56,563 nucleotides of DNA from Thermoplasmata archaeon (GTDB taxonomy: Archaea > Thermoplasmatota > Thermoplasmata > Halarchaeoplasmatales > Halarchaeoplasmataceae), in NCBI GenBank assembly GCA_003553085.1, contig PUPH01000155.1, positions 1 through 56,563 on the forward strand, given 5' to 3'. This document shows, piece after piece, positions 6,478-56,334 of this stretch. Position 1 is the stretch's first letter. Every line of letters begins with the position of its first letter. The notes under the pieces are model-generated. The model saw only the letters and a program-made list of their open reading frames with translations. It had not been told where the DNA came from and ran no database searches. Made by a program: the position numbers and the translations under genes.

Positions 6478-6676
6478 ACTAAAGTATCGAATGGAGGACC
6501 GGGATATATATTTAACCTACAGTATCTTATAACATCGTAAAAATTAATTATGTGTAGGAAATATCAGTATGAGCGATACAGAAAAAGAATAGGAGTGTGG
6601 AGAAATACTGGATGAAGGTACGGAACAAGGGAGAAGGTTCGTAGGTCGCGAAAAAGAACTGTCTATACTTAAAAGT

Positions 6677-8974
6677 GTGATGATGGAAGTCCTCTCCAAG
6701 GAAGGTAGATTGGTGCTTATCGAAGGGGAAACCGGCATCGGAAAAACTGCGTTGGCCCAGCGTTTCATGGAGGTATGTAAAAGGAACGGGTTTACGGTTT
6801 TGGCCGGTAGATGCAGGCACCACGGCTATTCTCCCTACCAGCCCTTCAAAGAGGCTCTAGAAGGGTTAGATGAGAAAGAAGTGGATGATATCTATAAAGG
6901 CGTAGCCGCTTCTTTTGGAAACTCCACTACAACCTCTCATTTCAAGGATTTCGACGTAGGGGATAAGAGAGGGGCATTGTTCCTGGAAATAACCGAGAGA
7001 TTGATAGGACTATCTAAAGATGAGCCGCTGTTGATATTCTTAGACGACCTACAATGGATAGACATCTCTTCAGCAAAACTACTTCATTTCCTTAAGAGAA
7101 ATCTTGGCCAAAACAGGATATTTGTCATAGGAGCTTACCGGCTGGAAGATGTATCGACCTTTGACGAAGAGATGCCAATCAAGGATCTCTTTAGATTGCT
7201 CGATAGGGAGAGAGACATGGAGATCATCAGTCTCGATAGATTAGGAAAGCAGGGTGTCAGGAACATCATCTGTAACATACTCGATCTCGATAACGTGCCT
7301 TCTTCTTTCGTTGATCTGATCTACAAAGAATCGGAAGGAAATCCGTATTATGTTCACGAGATCATGAACTCACTCTTAGATGAAGGACTCATCGACCTTT
7401 ATTCGTTCAGATGGGATCCAAACATAGATCTATCCAAGATGATCATCCCTAAATCCATAGAATCTATCACTCGCAGAAAGGTTGATCGGTTGGATAGACC
7501 GCATAAAACGGTGCTTTCAGCCGCGGCGGTCATGGGTGATGAGTTCGATTTCGAGGTCATCGAAAAAACCCTGGACATGGACATATTTGAACTACTGGAC
7601 ATCCTTGACCAATTGATAGATCGAGGTTTCATAACCGAAGTTTCAGAGGCAGACAAAGAGTTGTACCGGTTCAATCACATACAAACGCGCTCTATCATCT
7701 ACCGACAGATGGGAAAAACGAGGAGAAGGGTGCTGCATAGGAACATCGCTCGATCTATGGATGAGGTATATTCAAAAGATCCCGATGAACATTACGCTGA
7801 GCTCAGCCTTCACTTCTTCAAGGGAGGCTTATGGAAAAAAGCATATGAGTATTCCCTAAAGGCCTCTGACGAGGCCATTTCATCCTTGGCACTGGATGAA
7901 GCGATCATGTACTTGGAACGGGCTTCTGAAAGTCTGGATCAGATGAAAGAAAAGGTCGATCTGAACTATAAAAAAGAATTGTACGACAGATTGAGCACCC
8001 TTTACATAGATGTGGATCGCTGGGACGAGGCATTGGAAGTGCTGGATCGGATCAAAGAAATAGCCAGTGAAAAAGATCTCGAGATCAGAGCCGATGCCGA
8101 ATTCAAGATCGCAAGATGCATGAGAGAGATGCAGGATTTTCATACAGCTGAAGAAAAATACACGACTGCGCTGGAGATGTATGGCACCTTAGAAGACGAA
8201 GAGGGTATCGCCAGGTGTCATCGAGGATTGGGGCACATGATGTGGAGAAGGGGGAGATTCGGATCTGCGTTGAGTCATTTTCAGAAGGCTGAAGATAAAG
8301 CAAGATCTATGGGTAATAATAAGATCCTTGCAACAGTGTACATGGATATAGGTAATACTCTGTGTCAATCCGGGGCTAGTGATGAAGGACTGGATTACTA
8401 CAAACAAAGCATCTCTATCCTGGAAGATAGTAACCATCATGGCGAACTAGCTCGAGCGTATAACAACATGGGGGACGAATACATGGACCGGGGTGAGATA
8501 AAAGAAGCCATCGACCTATTCCAAAATACTATCACCATGGGAGAGAAGGCAGGTAGTTACTTGATCGTGGGATGGGGGAGTTTCAATCTTGGACTCGCTT
8601 TGGCAAAGGGAGGAGAAATCAAGAAGGCTCTAGATCGGGTCTCATACGCCGAGAATATCTTGACAAAATTGGACCACTCGGTGGGACTTTCCTCAGCACT
8701 CAGGACCAAGGCTACGATTTACAGACTCAATGGGGAGCATCAAAAAGCTCTAGGTTCAGTTGAAAAGGCCATGGAAATACTGGTGAAGATGGACATACCT
8801 TTCAATTTAGCTCTCTGCATGCTGGAGAAAGGAAAAATACAGATGGAGCTGGATGATACAAAAAAAGCTGAAGATCTGTTCCGGGAAGCTGAAGCGGTGT
8901 TTCGGGATCTGAACACCGTACCGTTGATCTCTGAAGTAGATCGTTTGCTCCAGCGCATCCAAGATGGATCTTGA
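6677..8974 (+). CDS. AAA_16/STAND-like ATPase with C-terminal TPR repeats (paralog 1); minimal coordinates
   Basis: Walker A GETGIGKT and Walker B LLIFLDDLQWID, followed by many TPR-like repeats. The conserved N-terminal motif RRFVGREKELSIL is encoded in frame upstream (6632..6676) of the first GTG/ATG. The frame is open back to TAG 6590..6592, and an in-frame ATG lies at 6569 (see findings). Confidence 0.85.
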   Translation: MMMEVLSKEGRLVLIEGETGIGKTALAQRFMEVCKRNGFTVLAGRCRHHGYSPYQPFKEALEGLDEKEVDDIYKGVAASFGNSTTTSHFKDFDVGDKRGALFLEITERLIGLSKDEPLLIFLDDLQWIDISSAKLLHFLKRNLGQNRIFVIGAYRLEDVSTFDEEMPIKDLFRLLDRERDMEIISLDRLGKQGVRNIICNILDLDNVPSSFVDLIYKESEGNPYYVHEIMNSLLDEGLIDLYSFRWDPNIDLSKMIIPKSIESITRRKVDRLDRPHKTVLSAAAVMGDEFDFEVIEKTLDMDIFELLDILDQLIDRGFITEVSEADKELYRFNHIQTRSIIYRQMGKTRRRVLHRNIARSMDEVYSKDPDEHYAELSLHFFKGGLWKKAYEYSLKASDEAISSLALDEAIMYLERASESLDQMKEKVDLNYKKELYDRLSTLYIDVDRWDEALEVLDRIKEIASEKDLEIRADAEFKIARCMREMQDFHTAEEKYTTALEMYGTLEDEEGIARCHRGLGHMMWRRGRFGSALSHFQKAEDKARSMGNNKILATVYMDIGNTLCQSGASDEGLDYYKQSISILEDSNHHGELARAYNNMGDEYMDRGEIKEAIDLFQNTITMGEKAGSYLIVGWGSFNLGLALAKGGEIKKALDRVSYAENILTKLDHSVGLSSALRTKATIYRLNGEHQKALGSVEKAMEILVKMDIPFNLALCMLEKGKIQMELDDTKKAEDLFREAEAVFRDLNTVPLISEVDRLLQRIQDGS

Positions 8975-25962: not shown

Positions 25963-26213
25963 CCAAGGGTAGATTGAACATACCTAGATGAATATTTTCC
26001 TCGCTAAAACTACAAAATGTTAAAATACGATGTTCGAGTTATATTTACCATTGAGGACCCGATTGCCGTAAGGGGTATATAGGATTCAGGTATAAGGGAT
26101 GATAACACCTTGATTCGTTGTATCATATACGAAGAAGTGATAAAAATGATATATGTCGTACTCTCACCGCCAAAAAACCAGTACAAAATAGTCCAAAATG
26201 GAGGTTTATATCG

Positions 26214-29200: not shown

Positions 29201-29456
29201 ATTGGAAGCGAACGAGGCCATGTTGGAATTGGTCGGTATTCCTGAAGACGAGTTATTATCGATGAACCTAGAGGATTTGATCTCAAGCGGTGAAAGTATC
29301 AAAGAGATGCTATTAGATGAAGGGAAGGAAAAGATATCAAAAAAGATCTCGTTGAAGAACAAGGATGACGAAGAGATAATATGCTCGCTCACGGCGATGA
29401 CTGTTAAGCAGGAAGGGCAGGTAGACTGTATGCTAATCTATCTAAAAGAAAGTTAG
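26214..29456 (+). CDS. response-regulator receiver fused to PAS/GAF multisensor array, no recognisable output domain
   Basis: Track ORF trimmed to ATG 26214, with GGAGGT 8 nt upstream. REC motifs IMIVDDNPDD..DIVITDYHIRWTDG. Then PAS-GAF-GAF-PAS-GAF-PAS-PAS. The protein ends inside a PAS module (..DCMLIYLKES) with no HisKA/HATPase, HTH, GGDEF or HD domain seen. Confidence 0.9.
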   Translation: MTDKVKIMIVDDNPDDRSLAIRELRRNFRDIEIIEIIDADELDEAMDEGEFDIVITDYHIRWTDGLKVLRRVKERKPDCPVIMFTGTGNEEVAVQAMKSGLEDYVVKSPKHFVRLSASVHSALQDIKERRAKKELEDLYTRLFERVPLALYSVDTHGRILAANTAMLDLLGIDSKDELNEYRAQDFHIKDEKRDEEISILDERGLLKGYELHLKRVDGEDIWVKDYAYVIRDEKGEIKYIEGSLEDITAIKKAHLELKEQRDKIERLHEVALKILDCTEKQEVYETTIEAAKNILGFSACTIHEVEDDEFVVRATQDGALEIGSRNPIEGVAGKSYREQRSILLKDISEVDDAKPADKEYRSGISIPIGEKGVFLNISTEADEFDEDDLKMGEILVSHMTDALRRIDFTDRMKENEEKLEQLHRAASKMETIMYEDELYDISLELASDVLDFQWCTIHIIEDGDLIVKATTHLGTEVGTHLSLDEGIYGKTCMEKRTFIVDDVTQHEDAKPSSPELRSVISVPLGEFGDLQVLSDEAGHFNETDKKFAELLANHITEALQRIKKNKQLKKSEERYRLITENSYDLIAMVGYDGKLTYANKAFQRVLGYDNEELIGEYIFDMLHPEDKEGVEDIFYQTLEKGIPHGVAQFKLKDDDGNYRWFEAVGRGVEGEDLVMVVSRDIDKRKKAEIKAMEGKKVIEKLHETASKMMNSSNEDDIYKLTIEAASNILDFDVCTIAIEEDDHLLIKETTGEVYREGIILDKGVGIIGKTYNQKKAFIIDRVDELDEARPYNEEYRSALSVPFGDIGVFQSISYTESDFDEHDLERAEILITHAYDVIKRIRYEKELGENQKRYKSIFENTGTAMVILDPEMEIKMCNLEAQNLLGYDPEEMTDKNLADFVLDKKELEDLFEILFDAEYNGQHRGFLSICNRYDDVKDIFLVSSVLPDYDRILVSMLDVTQQVDNMKNLEQSQELFRVAFEGAPISMLLVDEGGIILEANEAMLELVGIPEDELLSMNLEDLISSGESIKEMLLDEGKEKISKKISLKNKDDEEIICSLTAMTVKQEGQVDCMLIYLKES

Positions 29457-29470
29457 GAGTTTGAGAACCG

Positions 29471-30952
29471 ATGGATGAAGAGGGATTCATAGATAGAAAT
29501 GAGGAATGTCGGATCCTCGAAAACATGGTGGAAGAGCTTGATAAAGGCAAGGGGGGTGCCGTGGTTATAACCGGAGAGGCGGGCATGGGTAAATCAACTT
29601 TGATCGAGTGGGTGATCGATAAAGCGGGAGAAAGAGGATACGATTCTTTTCAAGGCTCTTGTATCTCAAGGAACGGACTGGAGTATTATGCGTTCAAAGA
29701 GGCTTTTGAGGATATCGCATCACCAAACGAATCCATACCATCACTACCTCTTGGGATATCCATATTCTCAGACGGTAGGTCCGAGGAGGAGATCCCTTTG
29801 TTCGACTCGGAGAGGCAAAACACATTGAGAGAATCTTTCGAAGCGATCTCCAGCATGGCTTTGGAAACACCCATGATCATCATAATCGAGGAGTTGCATT
29901 GGGCGGATAAATCTACACTTTTGGCATTTAGATACCTATCGGAGCACTCTAGAGATCATCCTATCATGCTGATAGCCTCGTATAGATCCGACGAAGCCGT
30001 AGGCTATCATCTTTTGGATGAAACTATCCACCATCTAAAGCAGAAAGGGATATGTAAAGAAATAGATCTGACTTCCTTCGATGTAGATGATACAAAAGAT
30101 GCGTTGCATAGTTTGCTCGGGGAGGAGCCACCATATTGGTTCGCCCGAGGATTACAATCTAAAACCGATGGGAACCCTCTATTTATAACAGAGACCATAA
30201 AATCTATGCGATCCAAGGGAATACTGATACCTGAAGAGGGGGTTTATCCGGACATAGGATCATATCTCGATTGGCCGTCCACTGTTAAGTATATCGTGGA
30301 AAGGAAAATGGTCAAGCTGGATAAGAAAACAAAAAATCTACTAAAATACGCTAGCATACTCGGACCGTCCTTCCCATACAATCTATTGTCGGACTTCGTA
30401 GATATGGATGAGATGGAGATGTTGGATTACCTCGATACAGCGATCGAACATGGGATATTAGAGGAGATGATCAGTACGGAGGGATATCGTTTTACCCAAC
30501 AGGCAGTAAGAGACGTTCTCTACGAATCTCAATTCAAAGGAAAGAAAAGACTGCTTCATAAAAGAGCGGCAGAGTCCATCGAGAACATATACTATGGGGA
30601 TGAGACACCTTATGGTCGACTTGGTGAACATTACGAGAACGCAAAGATTTACGATAGATCATATGAGAATTACGTCAAAGCTGCGGAAACCGCTGAAGAT
30701 AACGATGAAAAAATAAGATTTTACAAAGCAGCTTTGAATGTTTCAAATAATACATCTATGGATGCTGAGGAGGTAAAAGAAGAATTTGGTAACCTGCTAC
30801 TTGAACATGGTGAAAAGTTGATCGAAGAAGGGAGTGAAGGGGATCTATTTTTAGAGGATGCGAAAGTTATCTTCAAGGATCTCGGTGACGAAGAGCGTCA
30901 TAAAAAAGCCTGCAGATTATTGGGTGAGGAGCAGGACAATATTTATAAATAA
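29471..30952 (+). CDS. AAA_16/STAND-like ATPase with short helical-repeat tail (paralog 2)
   Basis: FIDRNEECRILENMV, Walker A GEAGMGKST and Walker B MIIIIEELHWADKST. It starts 14 nt after the sensor stop, with TAGGAG 12 nt upstream of the ATG. Confidence 0.85.
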   Translation: MDEEGFIDRNEECRILENMVEELDKGKGGAVVITGEAGMGKSTLIEWVIDKAGERGYDSFQGSCISRNGLEYYAFKEAFEDIASPNESIPSLPLGISIFSDGRSEEEIPLFDSERQNTLRESFEAISSMALETPMIIIIEELHWADKSTLLAFRYLSEHSRDHPIMLIASYRSDEAVGYHLLDETIHHLKQKGICKEIDLTSFDVDDTKDALHSLLGEEPPYWFARGLQSKTDGNPLFITETIKSMRSKGILIPEEGVYPDIGSYLDWPSTVKYIVERKMVKLDKKTKNLLKYASILGPSFPYNLLSDFVDMDEMEMLDYLDTAIEHGILEEMISTEGYRFTQQAVRDVLYESQFKGKKRLLHKRAAESIENIYYGDETPYGRLGEHYENAKIYDRSYENYVKAAETAEDNDEKIRFYKAALNVSNNTSMDAEEVKEEFGNLLLEHGEKLIEEGSEGDLFLEDAKVIFKDLGDEERHKKACRLLGEEQDNIYK

Positions 30953-38000: not shown

Positions 38001-38347
38001 TACTCACCATCTACCTCCAGATAAGCTTTCTCTCGGAGGTACGCCACGGGTATATCTTCATCCCTGGCCCGACTTCGTAACTCCGCATCGTTCGTTATGA
38101 GTACGGCTTTCAGCTCTAGAGCGGCCTGTAGTACGCCTTCGTCCCGTTCCTTATCGACCTCGTATATTTCGTACTTGTCCGCTAACATCAAAGCGTCCTT
38201 CCTCTTCAACGTTCTTAGCTCCTTAATAACGGATGAAGGGACATATACTTCAGGATCACCGAACAGCCTTGTGATCTCGAAATCTATGTTTATGTTGAAC
38301 TGAAAGGGCATCATCAATGCGTTGGTGTCGAGCACTACTGAATTCAT
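37997..38347 (-). CDS. PIN-domain protein (Fcf1/Utp24-like archaeal family)
   Basis: VVLDTNALMMPFQF, VPSSVIKEL and LITNDAEL. It has 4-nt ATGA-type overlaps with both cysC (upstream) and ribK (downstream). Confidence 0.75.
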   Translation of the reverse strand: MNSVVLDTNALMMPFQFNINIDFEITRLFGDPEVYVPSSVIKELRTLKRKDALMLADKYEIYEVDKERDEGVLQAALELKAVLITNDAELRSRARDEDIPVAYLREKAYLEVDGEY

Positions 38348-38925
38348 GATATGTATCCTTCTTTTACTAGGTAGTCGATCACGTTCTGAACGCTTTCTTC
38401 TATGTTTTCCTTATGGGTTTCCAGCACTATCTCCGGCTCTTCCGGCTCCTCGTAGGGATCGGAAATACCTGTGAAATTTTTGATCTCTCCGTTCCTAGCC
38501 TTCTCGTACAGCCCCTTGACATCTCTTTCCTCACATACTTCCACCGGACACTTCACGAAAACTTCGATGAAGTTAGTCACCATATCTCGTGTTTTCCCCC
38601 TTCGTTCCCGATAGGGTGATATGAAGGAGGCTAAAACCGCGACACCGTTCCTGGAGAGTAACTTTGCAACGAAACTGACCCTTTCTATGTTCATATCACG
38701 GTCCTCTTTGGTAAAACCGAGGTCGGATGTTAGATGCTGTCTGACTATGTCCCCATCAAGGCGTTCCACCGATTCACCGAATTCATCTTCCAGTCTAATA
38801 GCCACCCGTTCGGCCACCGCCGACTTACCGGAACCCGACAGTCCGGTGAACCAAAGTGTGTAGCCATCCTTGATATTCTTCTTATCCCAATGCTGTTCGT
38901 TTGCAATTATGTTTTCATTAACCAT
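38344..38925 (-). CDS. cysC: adenylyl-sulfate (APS) kinase
   Basis: LWFTGLSGSGKSAVA, LDGDIVRQHLTSDLGFTKEDRDMNIERV and SFISPYR. Confidence 0.9.
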   Translation of the reverse strand: MVNENIIANEQHWDKKNIKDGYTLWFTGLSGSGKSAVAERVAIRLEDEFGESVERLDGDIVRQHLTSDLGFTKEDRDMNIERVSFVAKLLSRNGVAVLASFISPYRERRGKTRDMVTNFIEVFVKCPVEVCEERDVKGLYEKARNGEIKNFTGISDPYEEPEEPEIVLETHKENIEESVQNVIDYLVKEGYIS

Positions 38926-38944
38926 CTTATCATACCTCTCACGA

Positions 38945-39934
38945 TCACAACTTCTTGATCACTTCATCCAGTATCTCATCTTCCTGCTCGGTGGGGATCA
39001 CCATCCCCACCACATCCTCCTTACCACCTGCGGAGTGACCTTTGTTTCGAACGTATTCGATGATCTCTTTGGAGTTCGGTATAGCACCTCTGATGTACAC
39101 CTGTGTTTCCCCTGGATGAAAGGAAGGGTTCGTTACCATGACGATATCGTCGTCCGATCTGCTCCATGAGATCTTTCTTGTCACAGTAGAGATGATGTTG
39201 TATGGTGTTTTCAACCTCAGCCTGTATAGGTTCTCTTTCGATCTGGTCAGCTCTCTTTTCGACAACCGCTCGATGGTCTCTTCAAGCTTCTCAAGGTTCT
39301 CTTTCAGATCTTTTCTAGACAAGATCTCGTTGGGGTGTGTAACGTCCATCAGGAACCAGGGGAACTCCCTGATCGATTTTCTATCACCCAATTTATGAAG
39401 GGTGTCCATCATGTGAACGCATCTCAGCATGTCGTCGAATCCTACCTTAAAAGAATCCATCAATGGCTGTATAACATTCATTGCTCTTTCGTTCTCTTTC
39501 AGCTTGGTCTCTCTATCACCGAAGGCTCCTAGTATGGTAAGGATATCCGGTTCTAGCTCTAAGTATTCAGTAACCACCCAGGAACAGCTCGGATATTCTT
39601 TAGGAGTTTTTCCGGATATTATCGGGTTATGATGCATTTCTACATCGTGCCTTTCCTGTATATGGTGATCGAATATGTGGACTCCGCCGAATCCTTTCAA
39701 GAATTCGATAGAGTCCTTCGGTAAAGCCATGTCGGCAACGATGGTGTGATCCGGGTCCAACTTCCGGATCTCTTCTTTGTCTTCCTCGTTCAAGAGGTAG
39801 TTACCGATGGTTGGGGTAAAAGTTTCGTAAGTGCCTTCTAAACACCTAAGCAATATCGCTGCAGAAGACATACCATCGGCATCCCAGTGATGTAGGAGCA
39901 AACCAGGTTCCTCAGTTTCGTTCTCTTTGGCCAT
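38945..39934 (-). CDS. DHH-family phosphoesterase (candidate pAp phosphatase/nanoRNase)
   Basis: LLHHWDADGMSSAAIL (DHH motifs I-II) and HIFDHH (motif III). It sits between sat and cysC. Confidence 0.75.
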   Translation of the reverse strand: MAKENETEEPGLLLHHWDADGMSSAAILLRCLEGTYETFTPTIGNYLLNEEDKEEIRKLDPDHTIVADMALPKDSIEFLKGFGGVHIFDHHIQERHDVEMHHNPIISGKTPKEYPSCSWVVTEYLELEPDILTILGAFGDRETKLKENERAMNVIQPLMDSFKVGFDDMLRCVHMMDTLHKLGDRKSIREFPWFLMDVTHPNEILSRKDLKENLEKLEETIERLSKRELTRSKENLYRLRLKTPYNIISTVTRKISWSRSDDDIVMVTNPSFHPGETQVYIRGAIPNSKEIIEYVRNKGHSAGGKEDVVGMVIPTEQEDEILDEVIKKL

Positions 39935-39944
39935 AGTGGTTCAC

Positions 39945-41102
39945 CTACTCGACGAACTTCGGGTCCGCATCTATCACTATCCGAGCCACTTCCGGCCTCA
40001 TCATATGTTCGGGAGGTATCTTACCCTCCATAAGTATCTTCCTCATCTTGGTCCCGCTGAAGTTCTCCCGATGCTCTTCTCCATGGGGGCAAATGAAACC
40101 ATCGACGGCACCGCCGCATTTCTCGCAGTATGTGAATGATTTGAAGAAAACGGGCGTGATATCCAGGTCTGGGAACCGGTCAAATATATCCTGGGCGGCA
40201 TAGGGGCCATAGTGATCGCCTACACCTGCATGATCCCTACCCACGATGAAATGGGTGCATCCGAAGTTCTTTCGCAGGATCGCATGGAAGATGGCTTCCT
40301 TGGGCCCGGCGTATCTCATCTCGGCTTGCAATATACTCATCACCGCTCGGTTCTTTAGATAGTAGTTATCCATGAGTGTTTGATAGGAGTCCAATATCAC
40401 CTCGTCCAGGTAATCACCAGTTTTCTTCTCACCTATGATCGGGTTGATGAATATTCCGTCAACGAAGGTGAGAGCGGTCTTCTGCACGTATTCATGCCCT
40501 AGATGGGGTACGTTTCTCGTCTGAAAACCTACCACCGTTCTCCATCCCTTCTCTTTGAAGAGGACTCTTGTCTCTATCGGCCGTAGGTTGTAATTTTGAA
40601 AGCCGGAATCGGTCTCGTTTATCTGTGTTATCTCTCCACCGATGAGGAAGTCATCCATGTTTCTGACCTTTTGTACTCCAGGATGAGCCTCGTTCGTTGT
40701 ACCGTAAACGCTCTCAGCCATGTGATCCTTATCGTATCCGTAGATCTCTTCGATGGACATCATGGCGAAACTGGCACCCGTTTCGGTCTGTAGTATGATC
40801 TCCTCTTCCCGCTTCAGTTCATCAGCGGTTGCTTTGTCCACATCAAGAGTTATCGGGATGGTCCAAGGGATGTCGCTTGACAACCTATCGTGATGAAGTA
40901 CGTTCTCGAAGTCATCCCTGCAAAGGAATCCTTCTAATGGACTGTAAACACCGGAGGCGATGTTCTCTACATCCTTTCTCAATCCACCGTTCAGTTTAAG
41001 GGTGGTCATACTCTCCGCTTCTTCCAGAAGACGTTCCTTCTTACTGCTGGAAACGATCCTATTTATCAGCGTTCCGCCGTGGGGTTTTGGCATCTTGAAC
41101 AC
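39945..41102 (-). CDS. sat: sulfate adenylyltransferase (ATP sulfurylase)
   Basis: PHGGTLINR, VGFQTRNVPHLGHEY and HFIVGRDHAGVG. Confidence 0.9.
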   Translation of the reverse strand: MFKMPKPHGGTLINRIVSSSKKERLLEEAESMTTLKLNGGLRKDVENIASGVYSPLEGFLCRDDFENVLHHDRLSSDIPWTIPITLDVDKATADELKREEEIILQTETGASFAMMSIEEIYGYDKDHMAESVYGTTNEAHPGVQKVRNMDDFLIGGEITQINETDSGFQNYNLRPIETRVLFKEKGWRTVVGFQTRNVPHLGHEYVQKTALTFVDGIFINPIIGEKKTGDYLDEVILDSYQTLMDNYYLKNRAVMSILQAEMRYAGPKEAIFHAILRKNFGCTHFIVGRDHAGVGDHYGPYAAQDIFDRFPDLDITPVFFKSFTYCEKCGGAVDGFICPHGEEHRENFSGTKMRKILMEGKIPPEHMMRPEVARIVIDADPKFVE

Positions 41103-41366: not shown

Positions 41367-41459
41367 ACTATCATTAAGATGTTTTATTTATAGTTTTTGT
41401 TCAGCCCTATGTTATCTGCACATACATTTTATTACTATCCACCACACTTGTATATCACG

Positions 41460-44400
41460 ATGGTTCTACACACGGAGCATGAACTCCCCTTGGTTGGTAG
41501 GGAGGAGGAAACATCCCTATTCTCAAAACAGATCCAAAGAACTTTAGAAGGATGCGGTGGAACCCTCTCTGTCTCCGGTGAGGCAGGGATCGGTAAAACC
41601 CGTCTGGTACGGGAGTTCGTACGACAGGCTGTGGATAACGGTTTCAAGGTGGTTGATGGTGCGGCGGATAAGCACTCGTTCAAGCCGTTTCAAATGTTAG
41701 TCAACGCCCTCCAAGAAGAAAGTTCCGAGCCGATCCTACGGGAGGAGGAAAGCACTTCCTTCTCTGAAATATTTGCAGTCAATGATGCCGGGATGCTTTT
41801 GGCCACTGCACGGCCGGAAGATGAGGATGAGATCGATGGAGACATATTCGCCGGTATGTTGTCCGCCATACAGAACTTCGTCAAGGATTCTTTCGATCGC
41901 TCGGGAGAATCGAAGGCGGGATTGGGAAGGTTAGAGTACGGAGATATGAAGATACTCATCGAACACGGTAAAAGTATCTACGTTGCAGCGGTCATAAAGG
42001 GGAAGGAACATCCGGAGATGAAACATACACTCGGCCGAACGGTGAAACAGATAGAGAGGGAGTACGCCGAGATGCTGGAAGATTGGAGCGGTGATATGGA
42101 GGAGATGGCCTGTGTGCAGGATAAGATATCTTCCCTATCCATGATCAAGTACTCCGTCCGTAAGGACTTCGAAGGTGTAAAGCTGGAGAACGAACGTCTG
42201 CGGATAGCCGATGATGTATTAGAACTCTTGAAAGATATGAGCAGGGAACGTCCGCTCATGCTGCTGCTCGAAGACCTGCACTGGGCGGATGAGTCATCCC
42301 TGTTCGTCATGGACTATATATCTAGGAACATAGGCGACCACGGTGTTCTCACCGTATGTACCCGGCGTCCAGAGGAAGGAGAGGCTGCGGAACGGACGGT
42401 AAAAGGTCTAGATGAGGACGGGTTGATCACACTGATGAAGTTACAGAAACTGACCGCCGATGATCTGAAGTTACTGGTGGATGAACTATATACACCTAAC
42501 GATTTCCCTGAAGACCTCATCGAGAGGCTCTCGAAAGAATGCCAGGGTAACCCGTTCTTCGTCATAGAGATGTTGAAGCAGATGGAACAGGAGGGGCACA
42601 TGGGCATTATCGATGGTACCTATAAGATGGTGACAGAAACCTTCACCATTCCATCCAGCGTAGAAGAAGTTGTCTATCGTCGTTTGGAGCTGTTGGACCC
42701 GGAGTCCATCGAGCTGGTCGAGTACGCATCCTGCGAGGGAGGGGTGATCGATAGGAGGATACCAAAGTGGTTCGATAGGGTTTCAGACATAAACTACACG
42801 ATGCAGAACCTCATGGATTCAGGGATATTGGTCCAAGATGCTGACCGATACGCATTCAGTCACGCCATCTTCAGAGATGTTATATATACCAGCCTTTCCC
42901 GGTGGTGGAAAAACAACTATCACCGTTCCCTGGGAGCCTTCTACGAGACAAACTACCACGATGATCTCTCAGAAGTGTATTATGAACTGGCTAGACATTT
43001 TTCTAACACCAACCAGCACGAAAAGGCACACGATTATTCATATAAAGCCGGTGAGAAAGCCGAATCAACGCTTGCGGCGGAGCAGGCCATCGACTTCTAC
43101 CAGATAGCGTACGACGTTTTAGAACATCTGCATCTACCCGAGGGAAAGAAAGAACGTAGATGCGATCTACTCGATAGGATAGGCGATATGAAAGGGCTGT
43201 TGGGAGATTACAAAGAGGCGAAAGGGTACTACCTCCATGGGTTGGAGCTTTCTCCCCCGGATACCACCAAGGCCCTCCTTCACCGTAAGCTGGGCAACGT
43301 TTTCATGGTCATAGGAGAGTACGACAGAGGGATCCAAGAATGTGACACCGCTTTAGCTCTACTGGAGTCGGACGATCCCGAGGTAATGAGGGTAAACCGG
43401 GTCAAGGGAAGGACGTACATGAGAAAGGGCGATTACGACGACGCCAAGCATCTGTTAGAAGAGGGTCTGAGCCTGGCGAAGGACATGGGAGATGATGGGG
43501 AGATCGCTGAGATCAAGCACAACATGGGCACCGTGGAATGGTACAAAGGTAACTACGACGACGCACTGACACATCTGGAAGAGGCTCTGGAAATAAGAAA
43601 GGAGATCCAAGACCATCGCGGAATGGCCCGGACTTCCACTAACATCGGTATCGTCCATTACTCCAAAGGTGAGCTGAACAAGTCCATAGAATACTACCGG
43701 GACGCACTCACATCCTTCGAGAAGATCGGAGATCGATTGAACACCGCTTCTGCCTTTGGGAACATAGGTATGGCCTTTCTAAAACTCGGCAGACTGGACG
43801 AGTCGCTGGAATACTTCAACCACTGTAAAGATACCTTTGAGATGGTCGGAGATAAAGGCAGCGCTGCTACAGCACTCAATAATATAGCATTGGTTTACGA
43901 GAAAAAAGGCGATATCGAGAATGCACTAATATTCCACAAAAAGGCCTATAGTAACCGGGAAAAGATAGGAGACAAGATGGGGATGGCGATGTCTTTGGTT
44001 AATATCGGGGGTGCACAGGGCGATTATGGGGATGTCGATATGGCTATTGACAACCTTAACAAATCTATAGATATGTATATCAACATAGGTGATAAAGAAG
44101 GAGTTTTATCACCGATGAATAACCTCGGGAGCATATTTAGAAAGGAGGGAAATATTGACAAAGCACTCGAGTATCACAAAGAAGCTGCAGATATCGCTGA
44201 ATCGGTCGGTTCGATAGATCGTGCGTGTGAGATCTATTTCGAGCTCGTTCAGGATGAGATATATACCCAAGATGTCGAAAAAGCGATGGTATATGCACAC
44301 AGAGTGTTTGAACATGCAGAAAAGACAGGTTCGGATAAGCTCCTTGGATATGGTCATCAGGCCTTGGGCATGGTCTATCGAGAAATGGAAAAATGGGATG

Positions 44401-44627
44401 AGGCGAAAGAGGAATTCGAAGCCGCGAGATCGATGTTGAGGGCGGCGGGCGATGATGTCGATCTGAGCAGGTTGTTATACGAATACGGTGTTCTCTGGAT
44501 GAGACAAGGTGAAAAGGTAGAGGCGTCAAGGTATCTTGAAGAGGCTTTGGAGATACAACAGAAGATGGGATTGAAGAGTGATGCTGAGAAGACGAAAGGG
44601 GCTATCTCGGATCTCGACGAGATATAA
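41460..44627 (+). CDS. AAA_16/STAND-like ATPase with inserted roadblock/longin-like module and long TPR array (paralog 3)
   Basis: Track ORF trimmed to ATG 41460 (MVLHTEHELPLVGREEE). Walker A GEAGIGKT and Walker B LMLLLEDLHWADES are separated by about 220 aa, versus about 95 aa in paralogs 1 and 2. At least 12 TPR-like repeats follow in the C-terminal half. Confidence 0.85.
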   Translation: MVLHTEHELPLVGREEETSLFSKQIQRTLEGCGGTLSVSGEAGIGKTRLVREFVRQAVDNGFKVVDGAADKHSFKPFQMLVNALQEESSEPILREEESTSFSEIFAVNDAGMLLATARPEDEDEIDGDIFAGMLSAIQNFVKDSFDRSGESKAGLGRLEYGDMKILIEHGKSIYVAAVIKGKEHPEMKHTLGRTVKQIEREYAEMLEDWSGDMEEMACVQDKISSLSMIKYSVRKDFEGVKLENERLRIADDVLELLKDMSRERPLMLLLEDLHWADESSLFVMDYISRNIGDHGVLTVCTRRPEEGEAAERTVKGLDEDGLITLMKLQKLTADDLKLLVDELYTPNDFPEDLIERLSKECQGNPFFVIEMLKQMEQEGHMGIIDGTYKMVTETFTIPSSVEEVVYRRLELLDPESIELVEYASCEGGVIDRRIPKWFDRVSDINYTMQNLMDSGILVQDADRYAFSHAIFRDVIYTSLSRWWKNNYHRSLGAFYETNYHDDLSEVYYELARHFSNTNQHEKAHDYSYKAGEKAESTLAAEQAIDFYQIAYDVLEHLHLPEGKKERRCDLLDRIGDMKGLLGDYKEAKGYYLHGLELSPPDTTKALLHRKLGNVFMVIGEYDRGIQECDTALALLESDDPEVMRVNRVKGRTYMRKGDYDDAKHLLEEGLSLAKDMGDDGEIAEIKHNMGTVEWYKGNYDDALTHLEEALEIRKEIQDHRGMARTSTNIGIVHYSKGELNKSIEYYRDALTSFEKIGDRLNTASAFGNIGMAFLKLGRLDESLEYFNHCKDTFEMVGDKGSAATALNNIALVYEKKGDIENALIFHKKAYSNREKIGDKMGMAMSLVNIGGAQGDYGDVDMAIDNLNKSIDMYINIGDKEGVLSPMNNLGSIFRKEGNIDKALEYHKEAADIAESVGSIDRACEIYFELVQDEIYTQDVEKAMVYAHRVFEHAEKTGSDKLLGYGHQALGMVYREMEKWDEAKEEFEAARSMLRAAGDDVDLSRLLYEYGVLWMRQGEKVEASRYLEEALEIQQKMGLKSDAEKTKGAISDLDEI

Positions 44628-44829: not shown

Positions 44830-47823
44830 TTAGTACTGGATCAACCAATCCACCGAATATCCTTCTTCGTTGAACAACCAGTAGGCGTTACCGGGTTCGA
44901 ATTCATGATCACCGGTTGAATAGATGTATTCTACGTTGTAGTCTTCGCTATCATTGAAAACGCCGATGATGGCGACTTCGGAGGGTAGTCCGTTGTTACC
45001 GGTGATCAAACTGGGATAGCCCACCATGTTCCAACCAGGGTTCAATGTGATGCTGGTTGTAGTCGGTTCGACACCGACTATCGTGAGTACGTCGTTACCC
45101 GTCATGCGTATCCAGACACCCATGGTTTCGTCCCATTCAGTGAGCGTGTTAAAATGAGAGGCTCGCCCGGGTACGTAGCTCTTCCACGTATCACTGGTAG
45201 AGTCGAAATACATCACTCTGTCGTAGCTACCGCTTATACCGTAAGTGGGATCGTTGAGTATGGTCTCCATGTCGTTATCCTCCGGTATCAAGAGTGGGGA
45301 TATAAAGGACCAGCCGTTGGATGAAGGTGAGTACGATAACGGTATGTCGTAAGTTGTGTAGGAAGCCGCAGATGCCTGATCACTATACGGACCGAACCCT
45401 ACACTGTTCCTGGCTCTGACTTGGTAAGAGTAGTCCACACCACTGTCCACGGTATCATCGATATAAGATGTGATCGGAGCTACTACATGGCCATGATAGG
45501 AACCTTCTCTATAGATCCAGTACTCGGTTATGGGCGAGCCTCCGTCGTTGATCGGCGGGTCCCATTCGAGTTCGATGTGGTCTTCTCCGCCCTGTGCCTC
45601 CAGGTTCAGAGGGGCGGTAGGAGTCCCCAAGGGTACCGCTGAAGCGGTGTTACTGTTGGGTCCTTCACCTACCATATTCACGGCGGTGACGTGGTATTTA
45701 TACTCAACACCGGCGGCGACATCGATATCGCTGTAGTCGGTATCCGGTGCCGTGACCGTATCGTAGTGTTCGTACGTTCCATACGTCGTGTTACGGTATA
45801 TCTTGTAGTTGGTAACGGGTGAACCACCGTCGAATGAGGGAGGTATCCATTCCAGGTACACCTCGTCTGTGTCTCCGGTGGCTGTGAGTTCCCGGGGCTC
45901 GGACGGTGGGTACGCATCTCCTGTAGGGAATACACCCCCTTTCCTGCTTCCAAAAGGTGTAATCGTTCCACCACCCAATCCAAGGATATCATCGTTGAAG
46001 GGGTTAATTCCTTTTTCTTCTTTCTCTTGGCCCCCACCTTCGTACCCCCAACCCCACACCTTACCGTGGACCGGTTCGTCCAGGGTGCGGAAGTTCACTC
46101 TGACCTTGAACTCGTATCCGGTTTTTGGCTCCAGACCATCAGCTAGGAAGTAGTGGGAGCCGGTGTTGATCTCGCCCGGGTCCGTCTGATCGTCGATGGG
46201 TAGTATAGGTGGATCTAATCCCTCCGAGTTCTTCGGATCCACCTGAGAGTTCCCTAGATACGTCCACTCTTTTTTTCCTTCCTGTCGTATGAAGACGGCA
46301 TAACTGTGCAGCAGGTCGTAGGTTCCTCTTTCCGTTGGTTCACCTTCGATGGTGCTGCTGGTGTACTTGAAATTAGGTATGGAGATGTTGATCCAAGAGG
46401 GACCGACTGCATCCCCATCTGAGTAGGGGTTGACCACCGGTTCGGGGATGGGTTCGTACTTCACAACGTGTTCCCCGATGTTCGGAGGTGTAGACTCACT
46501 CTCGGCTTTATAGTTCGATACCCAGGTATAATTGATGTATTCATCGTATTTTTCATCGTAATACTGATACTCGGCCAGGAACATGATATTTTGGCCGAAC
46601 TCAGGCGATGAAAACCATTGATGCGGTGCGTCGCCGGGCGTGGCATCCCAGAAAAATGTGTCCTTACCTTCGTTCACCGTTCCATCGTTGATGGCGTCAT
46701 CGGCACCCCTGGGGGTCTTGTCGGGGTTGTTGATATTTATAGCCGTGATGTTACCAGAGAATCCATATTGTTCATCGTACCATCCGGCATTCCCGTCATA
46801 GCTATCCCTGGGATCACCTTGTAGATATGTGGCCAAATTTTCTTGTACAGAAGAAGTGGGGATCGTGGATACCTCTCCACCTGCGAAGGTGGTTACACTA
46901 CCGCCTTGGGGCTTTAACAGATCACCGTATTTCATCTCTTCGTCACCGAGTCCACCCTGGTAACCCCACACGGGTTCGACCGGACCTTCCAGTGTACGGA
47001 AGTTCACCCGGACCTTGAACTCGTAATACATGGACGGCTTCAGATCCTCGACGAGGAAGTAGTGGGAGCCGGTGTTGATTTTTGAAGGGTCTGTTACATG
47101 ATCGGCAGCGGGTAAGGGGTCATCCAGATATTTTTTATTGTTGGGATCCACCTCTGAGTTACCCAGGTATCTCCATCCCTCGAATTCATCCTTGATGAAT
47201 ACCGCATAGCTCTGCAGTAGATCATAAGTCCCTCTATCTGTGGGTTTCCCCTCGATCGTACTACTGGTGTACTTAAAATTAGGTATGGATATGTTGACCC
47301 AGGTGAGACCCCTGGCCTCATCAGTATAAGGGTTAAGAACCGGCCTGGGGATGGGCTCGTACCTTACAGCGTGCTCTTTGATATCAGGGGGAGTTCCCTT
47401 TTCCTCAGCGATATAGTTAGATGCCCATGTATAATTCATAAATTCTTCATGATATTTATCGTGATGCTGATACTCGCCCAAGAAGATTATGTTGTTACCT
47501 GGCTCAGGGGCATATTTGTACCACCGATGCGCCTCTTCCCCCGGAGCTGCATCCCACCAAAATTGGTTCTCATCCCCTTGGTTCACCGATCCGTCGTTTA
47601 TTGCATCATTTGCACCGCGGGGGCTGATACCGGGTTGATTTACATCTATAGCAGTGATGTTCCCTGAATAGATGCTATGACGATTCCATACAGCGTTTCC
47701 GTCATAACTGTCATAGGCGTGACCTTTTAGATATATGGCTGCGGGTTCCCCCTCCACAAATTCATTCGGAATGACCACTAATACCAGTAGTATCACAACT
47801 ACCAACGAAGCTAGTTTTTTCAT
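44830..47823 (-). CDS. secreted surface protein: 2 x ~300-aa novel repeat, 2 x fibronectin type III, C-terminal domain
   Basis: Signal peptide MKKLASLVVVILLVLVVIP. Internal duplication at aa 29-330 and aa 331-632. Two FN3 modules (LEWIPPSFDGGSPVTNYKIYR..., LEWDPPINDGGSPITEYWIYR...). A 175-aa C-terminal module carries GWSFISP / GWNMVGYP motifs. No C-terminal TM anchor. Confidence 0.85.
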   Translation of the reverse strand: MKKLASLVVVILLVLVVIPNEFVEGEPAAIYLKGHAYDSYDGNAVWNRHSIYSGNITAIDVNQPGISPRGANDAINDGSVNQGDENQFWWDAAPGEEAHRWYKYAPEPGNNIIFLGEYQHHDKYHEEFMNYTWASNYIAEEKGTPPDIKEHAVRYEPIPRPVLNPYTDEARGLTWVNISIPNFKYTSSTIEGKPTDRGTYDLLQSYAVFIKDEFEGWRYLGNSEVDPNNKKYLDDPLPAADHVTDPSKINTGSHYFLVEDLKPSMYYEFKVRVNFRTLEGPVEPVWGYQGGLGDEEMKYGDLLKPQGGSVTTFAGGEVSTIPTSSVQENLATYLQGDPRDSYDGNAGWYDEQYGFSGNITAININNPDKTPRGADDAINDGTVNEGKDTFFWDATPGDAPHQWFSSPEFGQNIMFLAEYQYYDEKYDEYINYTWVSNYKAESESTPPNIGEHVVKYEPIPEPVVNPYSDGDAVGPSWINISIPNFKYTSSTIEGEPTERGTYDLLHSYAVFIRQEGKKEWTYLGNSQVDPKNSEGLDPPILPIDDQTDPGEINTGSHYFLADGLEPKTGYEFKVRVNFRTLDEPVHGKVWGWGYEGGGQEKEEKGINPFNDDILGLGGGTITPFGSRKGGVFPTGDAYPPSEPRELTATGDTDEVYLEWIPPSFDGGSPVTNYKIYRNTTYGTYEHYDTVTAPDTDYSDIDVAAGVEYKYHVTAVNMVGEGPNSNTASAVPLGTPTAPLNLEAQGGEDHIELEWDPPINDGGSPITEYWIYREGSYHGHVVAPITSYIDDTVDSGVDYSYQVRARNSVGFGPYSDQASAASYTTYDIPLSYSPSSNGWSFISPLLIPEDNDMETILNDPTYGISGSYDRVMYFDSTSDTWKSYVPGRASHFNTLTEWDETMGVWIRMTGNDVLTIVGVEPTTTSITLNPGWNMVGYPSLITGNNGLPSEVAIIGVFNDSEDYNVEYIYSTGDHEFEPGNAYWLFNEEGYSVDWLIQY
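45928..46833 (-). repeat. intragenic tandem repeat unit 2
   Basis: Encodes aa 331-632. See unit 1. The offset between equivalent motifs is 302 codons. Confidence 0.8.
46834..47739 (-). repeat. intragenic tandem repeat unit 1 (about 906 nt)
   Basis: Encodes aa 29-330. Shares motifs DSYDGNA.W, SGNITAI, PRGA.DAINDG.VN, NISIPNFKYTSSTIEG.PT.RGTYDLL.SYAVFI, INTGSHYFL and YEFKVRVNFRTL with unit 2. The DNA string AAGTAGTGGGAGCCGGTGTTGAT is present in both units. Confidence 0.8.
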
Positions 47824-54418: not shown

Positions 54419-55978
54419 TCAAACCTGCTTTACGAATTTGACCCTCGGATGGTCGTCCCTTTCGACCGTGATGTTGTAGATCTCTGTATTCGGTTTCTCA
54501 CCATACACAAATAAAGAATTATAATAAGTGAACATCTTCAGATGTATGTCAGAGACATACCGAGCATTGTCTGAATAAAAGAATCCAGGTCCCATAACAC
54601 CGATGGTGAGACCACTGTTTTTCTTCATAAGTTCGAGCAGTTCTTTTGCTGCTTTACTTCGGTCTATCTCACCTATCTCTGCATCCCCTATGGAATGTTC
54701 GATGGTGACCCAATCACAGATGGTGAGTATAGGCTCATTCGCCTTGAACTTGAGCTCTTTGTAGGCTTCATGGAAAGAATGTTTAAAATCGCCTTTTTTA
54801 TGCCTCTTGAGTTCCTTGGAGTCTATCACTTTTAGATTATCCTCCATATCCTCACTAAAAATACTACTGCTTTCACCGAATATATTTTTATCCCTACTAG
54901 ATGGCACCAACAGAACGCCACGTTCTTGTGACAAAAAGTTCTCAAGTACCGGTCCGAAGAGTTTCATCTGCCCTGCCAAAGGTACATCGTGACTAACTTC
55001 GATGAGAACCAGACTGCCATGAGGGTAGCCACCTCCCAAGATATCATCAAATTCCTTAGATCCGCTGGAAAACAGATCCCTATCCCAGTATGATGTTCCC
55101 TCACCATCTAGGATCGGGTCGTGTTCTTTCTGGAAAAGAGGTATGTTTTGACTAAATGAAGGAGAGTATCTGAACTTTCCACCATCCAAGGTAAACAAAT
55201 ACATCGGTCTATCGATCCTGATACCCCTGAGCTTGTTCAAGGACATCAGTCTAACTCGTCGACCACTTTGTTCATCTACGCTCAATGTGACGACGCCGTC
55301 CACCAGATAATCCCATGTGGTCGCCTCTTCAGCTTCGAGAACTATTATCAGCTTGGTTCCCGACATCTCGACCAGATCTCTCTGGAGAACCTTTATCAAT
55401 GATGTAGCGTCGACCGCATACCTCTCGATCAGCGACTCAAGACTGTCGATGATGACGATCGAGGGGGAAGGAAGACGAGAATCTACACGATCGTAGATAT
55501 CTTCTAGTGCTGTGATATCTGAATCGGCCATAAGTGTCATCAAACAACTGCGAGAAACTTCCTCCGGAGGGGTGAACTCTTCAGGAGGTTTATCTCCCAT
55601 TACATCTATAACTCTGCGAGCATGTTCGATCTTCTCAAATTTTTCGTCCCCACTGGCGAATGCTTTTGTTTTAGTGAGTTTTGATGTTTTATCTTTATAC
55701 AACGAGCGTAAGAAATCCATACTCGAGTCCACGAGGTTTTCTCGCATGTCTTTCTCCTTCAACCATTGAAACTGGCTATAAAGGGATTTGTTGGATACCC
55801 TTGTTGAAAAATAGAATGAGTTTTCTATATCCGCTATCTCCTCTAACAAGGTCAGACTCAATATCGTTTTTCCAGTTCCTGCGTGTCCTTTGACGATCAA
55901 AGATCGTCCGACATCACTGCTGAAGAAATCGTATATCTCCCTCGGCAGTACTTTGTTCACCATACCACCCCGTCCCAA
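54419..55978 (-). CDS. RecA-superfamily ATPase, GvpD/KaiC-like, with degenerate second domain
   Basis: LPREIYDFFSSDVGRSLIVKGHAGTGKTILSLTLLEE (GvpD-like N-terminus with Walker A) and Walker B SIVIIDSLESL. The second domain begins EFDDILGGGYPHGSLVLIEVSHDVPLA and has no P-loop. An alternative start ATG lies at 55963. Confidence 0.7.
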   Translation of the reverse strand: MGRGGMVNKVLPREIYDFFSSDVGRSLIVKGHAGTGKTILSLTLLEEIADIENSFYFSTRVSNKSLYSQFQWLKEKDMRENLVDSSMDFLRSLYKDKTSKLTKTKAFASGDEKFEKIEHARRVIDVMGDKPPEEFTPPEEVSRSCLMTLMADSDITALEDIYDRVDSRLPSPSIVIIDSLESLIERYAVDATSLIKVLQRDLVEMSGTKLIIVLEAEEATTWDYLVDGVVTLSVDEQSGRRVRLMSLNKLRGIRIDRPMYLFTLDGGKFRYSPSFSQNIPLFQKEHDPILDGEGTSYWDRDLFSSGSKEFDDILGGGYPHGSLVLIEVSHDVPLAGQMKLFGPVLENFLSQERGVLLVPSSRDKNIFGESSSIFSEDMEDNLKVIDSKELKRHKKGDFKHSFHEAYKELKFKANEPILTICDWVTIEHSIGDAEIGEIDRSKAAKELLELMKKNSGLTIGVMGPGFFYSDNARYVSDIHLKMFTYYNSLFVYGEKPNTEIYNITVERDDHPRVKFVKQV

Positions 55979-56334
55979 TGCTCGAGAAGATGATCTACAG
56001 TTTCATCCATAGAGCCCAAAACACTGACGAAGTTATTACGTGTGTGGGTTCTAAGTATCAATATATGTTGACCATCGACCTTCTTTATTACCGTATCACC
56101 ATCGCTAGCTCTCATAACTATGCGGTTCGGACGCTGCTTATTCAGATGTTCGTTAGCAGTGTTCGCTGCACCATAGATGGTAGCCGCCATTATTCCAAAT
56201 GTTTCGATGCTCAAAGATCCTACATCACCTACACTGGCTACGATATCCCCATTCTTACGGGTGAGTAGACAAAGTTCTATTTCGGGTTTAGATTCCAGTT
56301 TTTTTAACGAATCCAGTACGACTCTCATGGACAT
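55957..56334 (-). CDS. Roadblock/LC7 (MglB-like) domain protein
   Basis: 125 aa. IELCLLTRKNGDIVASVGDV...ETFGIMAATIYGAANTA...RIVMRASDGDTVIKKVDGQHILILRT fits the Roadblock/LC7 pattern. It overlaps the start of the downstream ATPase. Confidence 0.8.
   Translation of the reverse strand: MSMRVVLDSLKKLESKPEIELCLLTRKNGDIVASVGDVGSLSIETFGIMAATIYGAANTANEHLNKQRPNRIVMRASDGDTVIKKVDGQHILILRTHTRNNFVSVLGSMDETVDHLLEHWDGVVW

Follow-up and report, generated by a model that had tools for sequence, protein, structure and literature searches.

The stretch analyzed here (hereafter the window) spans positions 1 to 56,563 of contig PUPH01000155.1 (56,563 nucleotides, forward strand), from the assembly GCA_003553085.1 of a Thermoplasmata archaeon of the Halarchaeoplasmataceae. 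It carries three paralogous genes for AAA_16 ATPases of the STAND (signal transduction ATPases with numerous domains) type. One of these, the target of this analysis, differs from the other two in having a folded domain, very probably of the longin fold, inserted between its Walker A and its Walker B motif. The open reading frame (ORF) that encloses the target runs from 41397 to 44627 on the plus strand, and, judging from an N-terminal alignment with its relatives, ATG 41460 is most likely the start codon, giving a product of 1055 amino acids (aa). The features of the target and its two insert-less paralogs, all on the plus strand, are as follows.

41460..44627, plus strand: whole target gene, a 1055-aa AAA_16 (STAND) ATPase with an inserted, predicted longin-like domain and a C-terminal tetratricopeptide repeat (TPR) array

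41577..41600, plus strand: Walker A (P-loop) motif GEAGIGKT, residues 40-47, seen in the translation

41745..41756, plus strand: predicted short strand, residues 96-99, which runs into the first longin strand (DSSP assignment on a 440-aa AlphaFold2 model)

41754..42137, plus strand: insert domain, residues 99-226 (128 residues), with a predicted longin fold (profile envelope of 180.9 bits; AlphaFold2; Foldseek)

42150..42161, plus strand: predicted short strand leaving the insert, residues 231-234, YSVR (DSSP assignment on the same model)

42177..42275, plus strand: helix 240-260, then the Walker B strand (MLLLED, 267-272) with LHWAD after it; the canonical AAA_16 core resumes here (alignment; AlphaFold2 model)

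42258-42275, plus strand: Walker B motif MLLLED, residues 267-272, within MLLLEDLHWAD (267-277), seen in the translation

42276..42779, plus strand: rest of the nucleoside triphosphatase (NTPase) module and a helical/winged-helix region, residues 273-440 (AlphaFold2 model, per-residue confidence mostly 85-96; Foldseek)

43272..44597, plus strand: sensor-type TPR array, residues about 605-1046 (Pfam TPR_12, TPR_1/2/8/10, TPR_MalT)

6677..8974, plus strand: paralog 1, an insert-less AAA_16-TPR protein with a Walker A-B distance of 101 residues (alignment; Pfam)

29471..30952, plus strand: paralog 2, an insert-less AAA_16 protein with a Walker A-B distance of 100 residues (alignment; Pfam)

By its profile score, its Walker A and B and HW.D motifs, and its C-terminal repeat array, the target is a member of the AAA_16/STAND class. 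Pfam AAA_16 scores 80.6 bits against a cut-off of 32.6 (E = 2.4e-22), with the match split into two stretches, and the C-terminal array is matched by TPR_12 (E = 4.9e-66) and TPR_MalT (E = 2.4e-14). Between the NTPase and the TPR array, the structural model places a helical and hairpin region at residues 333-437. In an alignment of 21 sequences of the same architecture, G40, G43, G45, and K46 are invariant, and D272, W275, and R303 are nearly so, as is V233; R246, E255, W275, and D277 are invariant across the three window paralogs. Given this conservation of the catalytic residues, the protein probably hydrolyzes ATP. The NTPase module begins after only about 10 residues, and neither the translation nor Pfam revealed an effector domain at the N or C terminus. 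An exact look-up of the target protein matched no record, and the PADLOC defense-system models hit it only with generic TPR models, with no match to an Avs-type or other defense NTPase.

In the target, 226 residues separate the lysine of Walker A from the aspartate of Walker B, compared with 101 and 100 in the two paralogs, and a three-way alignment assigns the difference to a single contiguous extra block of about 125 aa. Because the Pfam AAA_16 match covers each paralog in one end-to-end stretch but is split in two in the target, the segment is an insertion relative to the family consensus. An earlier, sequence-only reading of this DNA had proposed just such an extra segment between Walker A and Walker B, foreign to ordinary AAA_16 proteins, and the paralog alignment and the Pfam consensus bear it out on both points. 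The peptide that it quoted is present as given, and the interval it assigned, 41748-42161, corresponds to residues 97-234, that is, the domain at 99-226 together with its two short flanking strands. We rejected an assembly chimera or a frameshift as the source of the insert, given that the same insert position recurs in 91 ORFs from 79 independent loci. Loss of the segment from the paralogs, rather than its gain in the target, was likewise rejected, as the Pfam AAA_16 consensus itself lacks it. A profile scan found a single copy of the insert in the window.

How the insert is joined to the core was modeled with AlphaFold2 from the 21 same-architecture sequences, giving a 440-residue model with a predicted local distance difference test (pLDDT) score of 85.1 and a predicted template modeling (pTM) score of 0.70. 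Ahead of the insert, the model has core strand 1 (34-39), the P-loop helix (46-59), strand 2 (63-68), and a short helix (78-87). From residue 96 on, it has the strand 96-99, the longin domain, the strand 231-234, the helix 240-260, and the Walker B strand (266-271). In this model, the insert occupies the variable loop that, in ordinary AAA_16 proteins, joins the two helices lying between strands 2 and 3, and strands 96-99 and 231-234 are possibly the two halves of a two-stranded stalk.

For the fold of the insert itself, AlphaFold2 was given an alignment of 44 sequences of the domain, drawn from both ATPase and non-ATPase contexts. The resulting model of the isolated insert has a pLDDT of 89.6 and a pTM of 0.83, with only the loop at 52-56 poorly defined, and comprises, in domain numbering, strands 3-10 and 15-19, helix 29-48, strands 59-62, 65-71, and 75-82, and helices 89-109 and 115-126. 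The predicted order, β1-β2-α1-β3-β4-β5-α2-α3 with a five-stranded antiparallel sheet, is that of longin domains. Roadblock domains open with a helix (α-β-β-α-β-β-β). When the insert model was searched against the PDB with Foldseek, 39 matches reached E ≤ 1e-3, and all those listed were longin or Roadblock proteins. The longin matches, which included the sigma subunits and mu N-terminal domains of AP-2 and AP-1, zeta-COP, the TRAPP subunits Bet5 and Trs23, and Sec22b, aligned over 121-131 columns with template modeling (TM) scores of 0.55-0.66 and E values of 2e-5 to 1e-3. Examples are AP2 sigma (E = 2.4e-5), AP1 sigma (TM 0.62), and the Sec22b longin domain (TM 0.66 over 131 columns). The Roadblock matches, comprising MglB, LAMTOR subunits, and the C-terminal domains of Rag proteins, aligned over a shorter 104-112 columns with E values of 4e-4 to 1e-3. 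A library of viral structures contained no match to the insert model at E ≤ 1e-3.

At the sequence level, the insert had no significant match in Pfam at E ≤ 1, in NCBIfam, or among PDB sequences; weak matches to CopM, MotA, and de novo proteins involved helices only and were judged spurious. Robl_LC7 appeared below threshold in 6 of the 44 domain members (best E = 0.012) and Fuz_longin_1 in one of the 44 (E = 0.084). The insert departs from Roadblock/LC7 (PF03259) on two counts, having neither a profile match above the gathering score nor an N-terminal helix. Longin is thus favored over Roadblock, because the element order and the full-length alignments fit it better, and we assign the insert, with high confidence in a fold read from the model, to a longin-fold domain family of the longin/Roadblock structural class. 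This assignment is structural: the likeness to the curated longin or Roadblock families may reflect homology or convergence on a common fold. The sequence-only reading had described the insert as a Roadblock- or longin-type module; it was right that the segment is a folded alpha/beta domain, as opposed to a linker or disordered, and right as to the structural class, while Roadblock proper fits less well.

The same domain is widespread. A word-indexed homolog search yielded 5-6 fragments in two tries, five of which share the insert at 41-58% identity, and the profile built from this five-fragment seed, run exhaustively against 1.84 billion cluster representatives, matched 4772 clusters with E ≤ 1e-3, of which 2837 reached E ≤ 1e-10. 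Look-ups of these clusters returned no public names other than “tetratricopeptide repeat protein” or “hypothetical protein.” A genome scan, with one genome per species, gave 138 confirmed matches, and the best 80 of these all came from Thermoplasmata, Methanomassiliicoccales, or Thermoplasmatota metagenome-assembled genomes. Many copies occur per genome, with at least nine loci from isolate SF.bin11. In 79 Thermoplasmata loci, 91 ORFs bear the domain, with a Walker A motif at most 90 residues upstream in 88 of them; the other three run off the ends of their contigs. In every protein of about 1000 aa among the 150 best representatives, the domain lies about 59 residues past Walker A, and Walker B about 40 residues past the domain. 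Hence, the architecture is neither a one-off of this archaeon nor rare, but belongs to a large and expanded Thermoplasmata family.

The domain is also a mobile module, present outside ATPases as well as within them. A transmembrane helix lies upstream of it, at a median distance of 11 aa, in 26 of 51 non-ATPase proteins, and some of these membrane-type proteins have PKD, Big_9, or CARDB domains across the helix from the longin-like domain. Two copies stand back to back in five proteins (P0074, P0084, P0099, P0113, and P0143). About twenty giant proteins of 1300-2400 aa (e.g., P0006, P0072, P0082-P0089, P0101, and P0111), which have no predicted transmembrane segment, repeat a unit of CARDB plus longin two or three times, several of them ending in DUF5915. 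In a quick and crude neighbor-joining tree of the domain copies, 79 of the 92 ATPase-borne copies (93 with the N-terminally truncated P0088) form one pure clade, and 61 other copies form a second. The 13 ATPase-borne copies left over fall between the two, as do P0088 and three non-ATPase copies. This topology fits a single ancient capture into the ATPase, which may then have expanded to many paralogs per genome. The insert-bearing AAA_16-TPR genes occur both as neighboring copies (loci L014 and L024) and as many dispersed paralogs per genome (SF.bin11, SF.bin51, and CSMAG_1135), which indicates a lineage-specific expansion in Thermoplasmata.

Set beside known proteins, the insert resembles the eukaryotic and Asgard longins (the N-terminal domains of AP-1/2 sigma and mu, zeta-COP, Sec22b/VAMP7/Ykt6, TRAPP Bet5/Trs23, and LD1 of Mon1/Fuzzy) in element order and approximately in size, but it lacks profile membership in these families and its hosts are Thermoplasmata, not Asgard archaea or eukaryotes. 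Its contexts, as an ATPase insert, next to a membrane helix, or among CARDB repeats, also differ from those of known longins. With the Roadblock/LC7 proteins (MglB, LAMTOR2-5, the Rag C-terminal domains, and dynein LC7), it has the sandwich architecture in common, although it opens with two strands and closes with two helices, whereas Roadblock opens with a helix. In Rag GTPases, a single chain combines a P-loop NTPase with a longin/Roadblock-class domain; there, the domain is appended to the NTPase, whereas in the target it lies inside the NTPase fold. For the protein as a whole, the comparison is with AAA_16 STAND ATPases that bear TPR sensors, whether MalT-, AfsR-, and GutR-like or effector-less archaeal forms; in common with them, the target has an AAA_16 module, Walker A, an hhhhED-LHWAD motif, and a TPR_MalT-like array. 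It differs from them in adding a folded 128-aa domain in the region between strands 2 and 3, and from the MalT-, AfsR-, and GutR-like members in having no DNA-binding, kinase, cyclase, or nuclease effector domain.

The placement of the insert has its closest parallels among classical AAA+ proteins. The best PDB matches of the 440-aa model in Foldseek were RuvBL1/2 chains (E = 2.6e-8), with HslU, RFC, and Cdc6/ORC also listed; the TM score to the RuvBL chains is about 0.3, so the likeness is one of splice site and not of overall shape. In RuvBL, about 170 aa inserted between Walker A and Walker B make up domain II, which has a two-strand linker that allows movement and a role in partner binding (PMC3510503). 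In RuvBL1/RuvBL2 (Rvb1/2, Pontin/Reptin) and in HslU, with its I-domain, a folded domain thus lies between the two Walker motifs, as in the target. The inserted folds are different (OB-like in RuvBL, helical in HslU, and longin in the target), as are the cores, which are of the ring-forming AAA+ type in RuvBL and HslU and of the AAA_16 STAND type in the target. Judged by splice site and core, the resemblance is an analogy, not membership.

These parallels also bear on novelty. Full-text searches found no publication that pairs longin domains with STAND NTPases or that describes longin-type domains in Thermoplasmata, and literature searches on longin or Roadblock together with STAND, archaeal signaling, or Thermoplasmata returned nothing relevant. 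Longins have been discussed as Asgard and eukaryotic features (bioRxiv 10.1101/2020.10.19.343400). The suggestion that this architecture had not been described stands insofar as no report of a longin with a STAND ATPase was found, and gives way in that RuvBL1/2 domain II and the HslU I-domain are precedents in kind: the fold, the ATPase class, and the type of splice site are each known, and it is their combination, and the lineage, that we did not find described.

What the insert does can be hypothesized from these comparisons. We propose that it is a protein-protein interaction module, for dimerization or as an adaptor, and would provide the output, or a docking surface for partners, in an ATPase that has no other effector. 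In this proposal, two short strands would lead from the core into the insert and back, at the position that partner-binding inserts occupy in RuvBL1/2 and HslU. As ATP drives the NTPase module to close and oligomerize, the longin modules would be reoriented and clustered, and the clustered modules might bind a partner, possibly another copy of the longin-like domain. Domains of the longin/Roadblock class usually serve as dimerization platforms, and the tandem domain pairs show the pattern expected of a dimerizing module. A displayed docking or output module is favored because this class of domain usually dimerizes, because the tandem pairs fit, and because AAA+ inserts between strands 2 and 3 engage partners and move with the nucleotide state. 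As a whole, we regard it as the best explanation, with the chances about evenly balanced; its output and docking mechanism, argued by analogy, is a working hypothesis that we hold tentatively. Several observations count against this proposal, in addition to the low TM score to RuvBL. Sequence profiles reach no curated longin (Longin, Clat_adaptor_s, Sybindin, Sedlin_N, or Fuz_longin_1) or Roadblock family. Both insert-less paralogs in the window likewise have no effector domain, so that the missing effector is weak evidence for the insert as an output. Finally, a search of about 6 kb around each of the 79 ATPase loci turned up no membrane-type copy, nor was one seen near three membrane-type or other (non-ATPase) loci inspected; the contexts of two non-ATPase members were uninformative.

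The last of these points bears most directly on a bolder form of the proposal, in which the membrane-tethered, giant-scaffold, and ATPase-displayed longin modules would pair with one another in Thermoplasmata through a homotypic interaction code. Because membrane-type copies are not found near the ATPase loci, genomic linkage lends such receptor-ATPase pairing no support. We consider the code quite unlikely. A serious alternative to the docking proposal, if still an unlikely one, is that the longin module acts within its own chain, packing on the nucleotide or oligomerization face and keeping the ATPase off until a TPR ligand or a partner displaces it. The sequence-only reading had proposed such gating, of nucleotide binding or oligomerization, from the placement of the module. 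A gate would suit the location of the insert between the two Walker motifs and its attachment to the core by a pair of short conserved segments. STAND ATPases of the MalT and Apaf-1 types are classically autoinhibited in the ADP state, and the longin domains of the SNAREs Ykt6 and VAMP7 fold back on another part of their own protein. However, the domain also occurs in proteins without any ATPase, which makes a primary role specific to an NTPase pocket unlikely, and the insert-less paralogs presumably regulate themselves without it.

Two further roles can be drawn from the structural neighbors of the insert. The Foldseek matches are dominated by binders of Arf, Rab, Rag, or MglA GTPases, in keeping with a module that binds or regulates a Ras-superfamily GTPase, as MglB, Ragulator, TRAPP, and Mon1-Ccz1 do, and that would thereby tie a GTPase to the STAND switch. 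Yet no small GTPase gene was seen beside the target or recurrently in the 79 loci, where no systematic search for small GTPases was made, and the insert has no sequence-level membership in the GTPase-binding longin or Roadblock families; this role seems improbable. More improbable still, to the point that we give it very little weight, is a small-molecule sensor, in which a pocket like those of PAS, GAF, or profilin domains would feed a metabolite signal to the ATPase. The longin and GAF/PAS folds are sometimes compared, and Foldseek gave weak matches to viral PAS sensor kinases (E = 0.03-0.09), but no PAS or GAF domain is among the 50 best PDB matches, and in the family alignments the positions that hardly vary are for the most part glycines and residues of the hydrophobic core, with no obvious pocket.

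The genomic surroundings of the insert-bearing ATPases contain no conserved operon partner, as judged by clustering of the neighborhoods of the 79 loci. The only recurrent neighbor is a class of secreted proteins with a common C-terminal domain; by family, the only ones to recur are peptidases and transporters. In the window, this class is represented by a gene at 44830-47823 (minus strand), convergent with the target. Its product, 997 aa long, carries a signal peptide and two fn3 domains; a stretch of about 300 aa is duplicated within it, and its C-terminal domain measures about 160 aa. The pair formed by the target and this gene is kept in the ten closest loci (L001-L010) despite differing upstream genes. 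The C-terminal domain of about 160 aa is also found on Peptidase_C25 (gingipain-like) proteins beside more distant paralogs (L014, L024, L043, L065, L076, and L077). Both families are abundant, and their association may be due to chance. On its other side, the target is preceded immediately by divergent genes at 38344-41102 (minus strand), namely those for an ATP sulfurylase at 39945-41102, a DHH-family protein at 38945-39934, and, at 38344-38925, a P-loop protein that may be an adenosine 5'-phosphosulfate kinase. Loci L001 and L007 each have, in the same upstream position, two genes (387/394 and 335/339 aa) that, by their similar lengths and order, are putative counterparts of genes upstream of the target in the window.

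Elsewhere in the window, a gene at 55957-56334 had been noted previously as a stand-alone Roadblock gene. Its 125-aa product is indeed Roadblock-like (Robl_LC7, E = 1.1e-3, below the Pfam cut-off), but it lies on the minus strand and has no detectable sequence relation to the insert, with an hhalign probability of 0.6% between its sequence and the insert profile. Its immediate downstream neighbor, which it overlaps by up to 22 nucleotides (nt), is the gene for a 519-aa GvpD/KaiC-like P-loop ATPase (54419-55978, minus strand), and the two look like a pair. Both insert-less paralogs have features of their own. At the start of paralog 1 (6569-6680), an ATG at 6569 is followed by seven codons and an in-frame TAG (6590-6592), with the conserved N-terminal motif FVGREKEL lying after the TAG; the first canonical start past it, GTG 6677, would remove this motif. 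TAG closes 7 of the window's 43 large ORFs and so acts as an ordinary stop in this DNA. Paralog 1 may be a pseudogene or may reflect a sequencing error, read-through, or a non-canonical start. Paralog 2 (29471-30952) belongs to a plus-strand region (26118-30952) in which a 1112-aa receiver-PAS-GAF multi-sensor protein ends 15 nt before its start, which suggests an operon linking a two-component-type sensor to this STAND ATPase.

In eukaryotes, longin and Roadblock platforms have a central place in membrane traffic and nutrient signaling; in Asgard archaea, longins are usually listed with the eukaryotic signature proteins. Against this background, a longin-fold family of thousands of clusters, unannotated in Thermoplasmata, either shifts the known range of longin-type platforms or else provides a clear case of fold convergence. 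If the homotypic code were true, longin-type platforms would have diversified in archaea well beyond Asgard, and Thermoplasmata would possess a receptor-to-ATPase signaling network with a logic comparable to that of the death-fold and TIR adaptor networks of eukaryotic NLR/STAND proteins. The target also represents a new design for a STAND switch, in which a folded module sits inside the nucleotide-binding core and not at a terminus. The main value of these results lies in the unannotated domain family and in its unusual placement within a STAND core; a new domain model is justified for proteins whose labels now reach no further than their repeats, where they have any. The family is abundant in protein-degrading archaea of sediments, with some copies beside genes for secreted peptidases or adhesin-like proteins, and may thus bear on how these uncultured archaea sense their surroundings.

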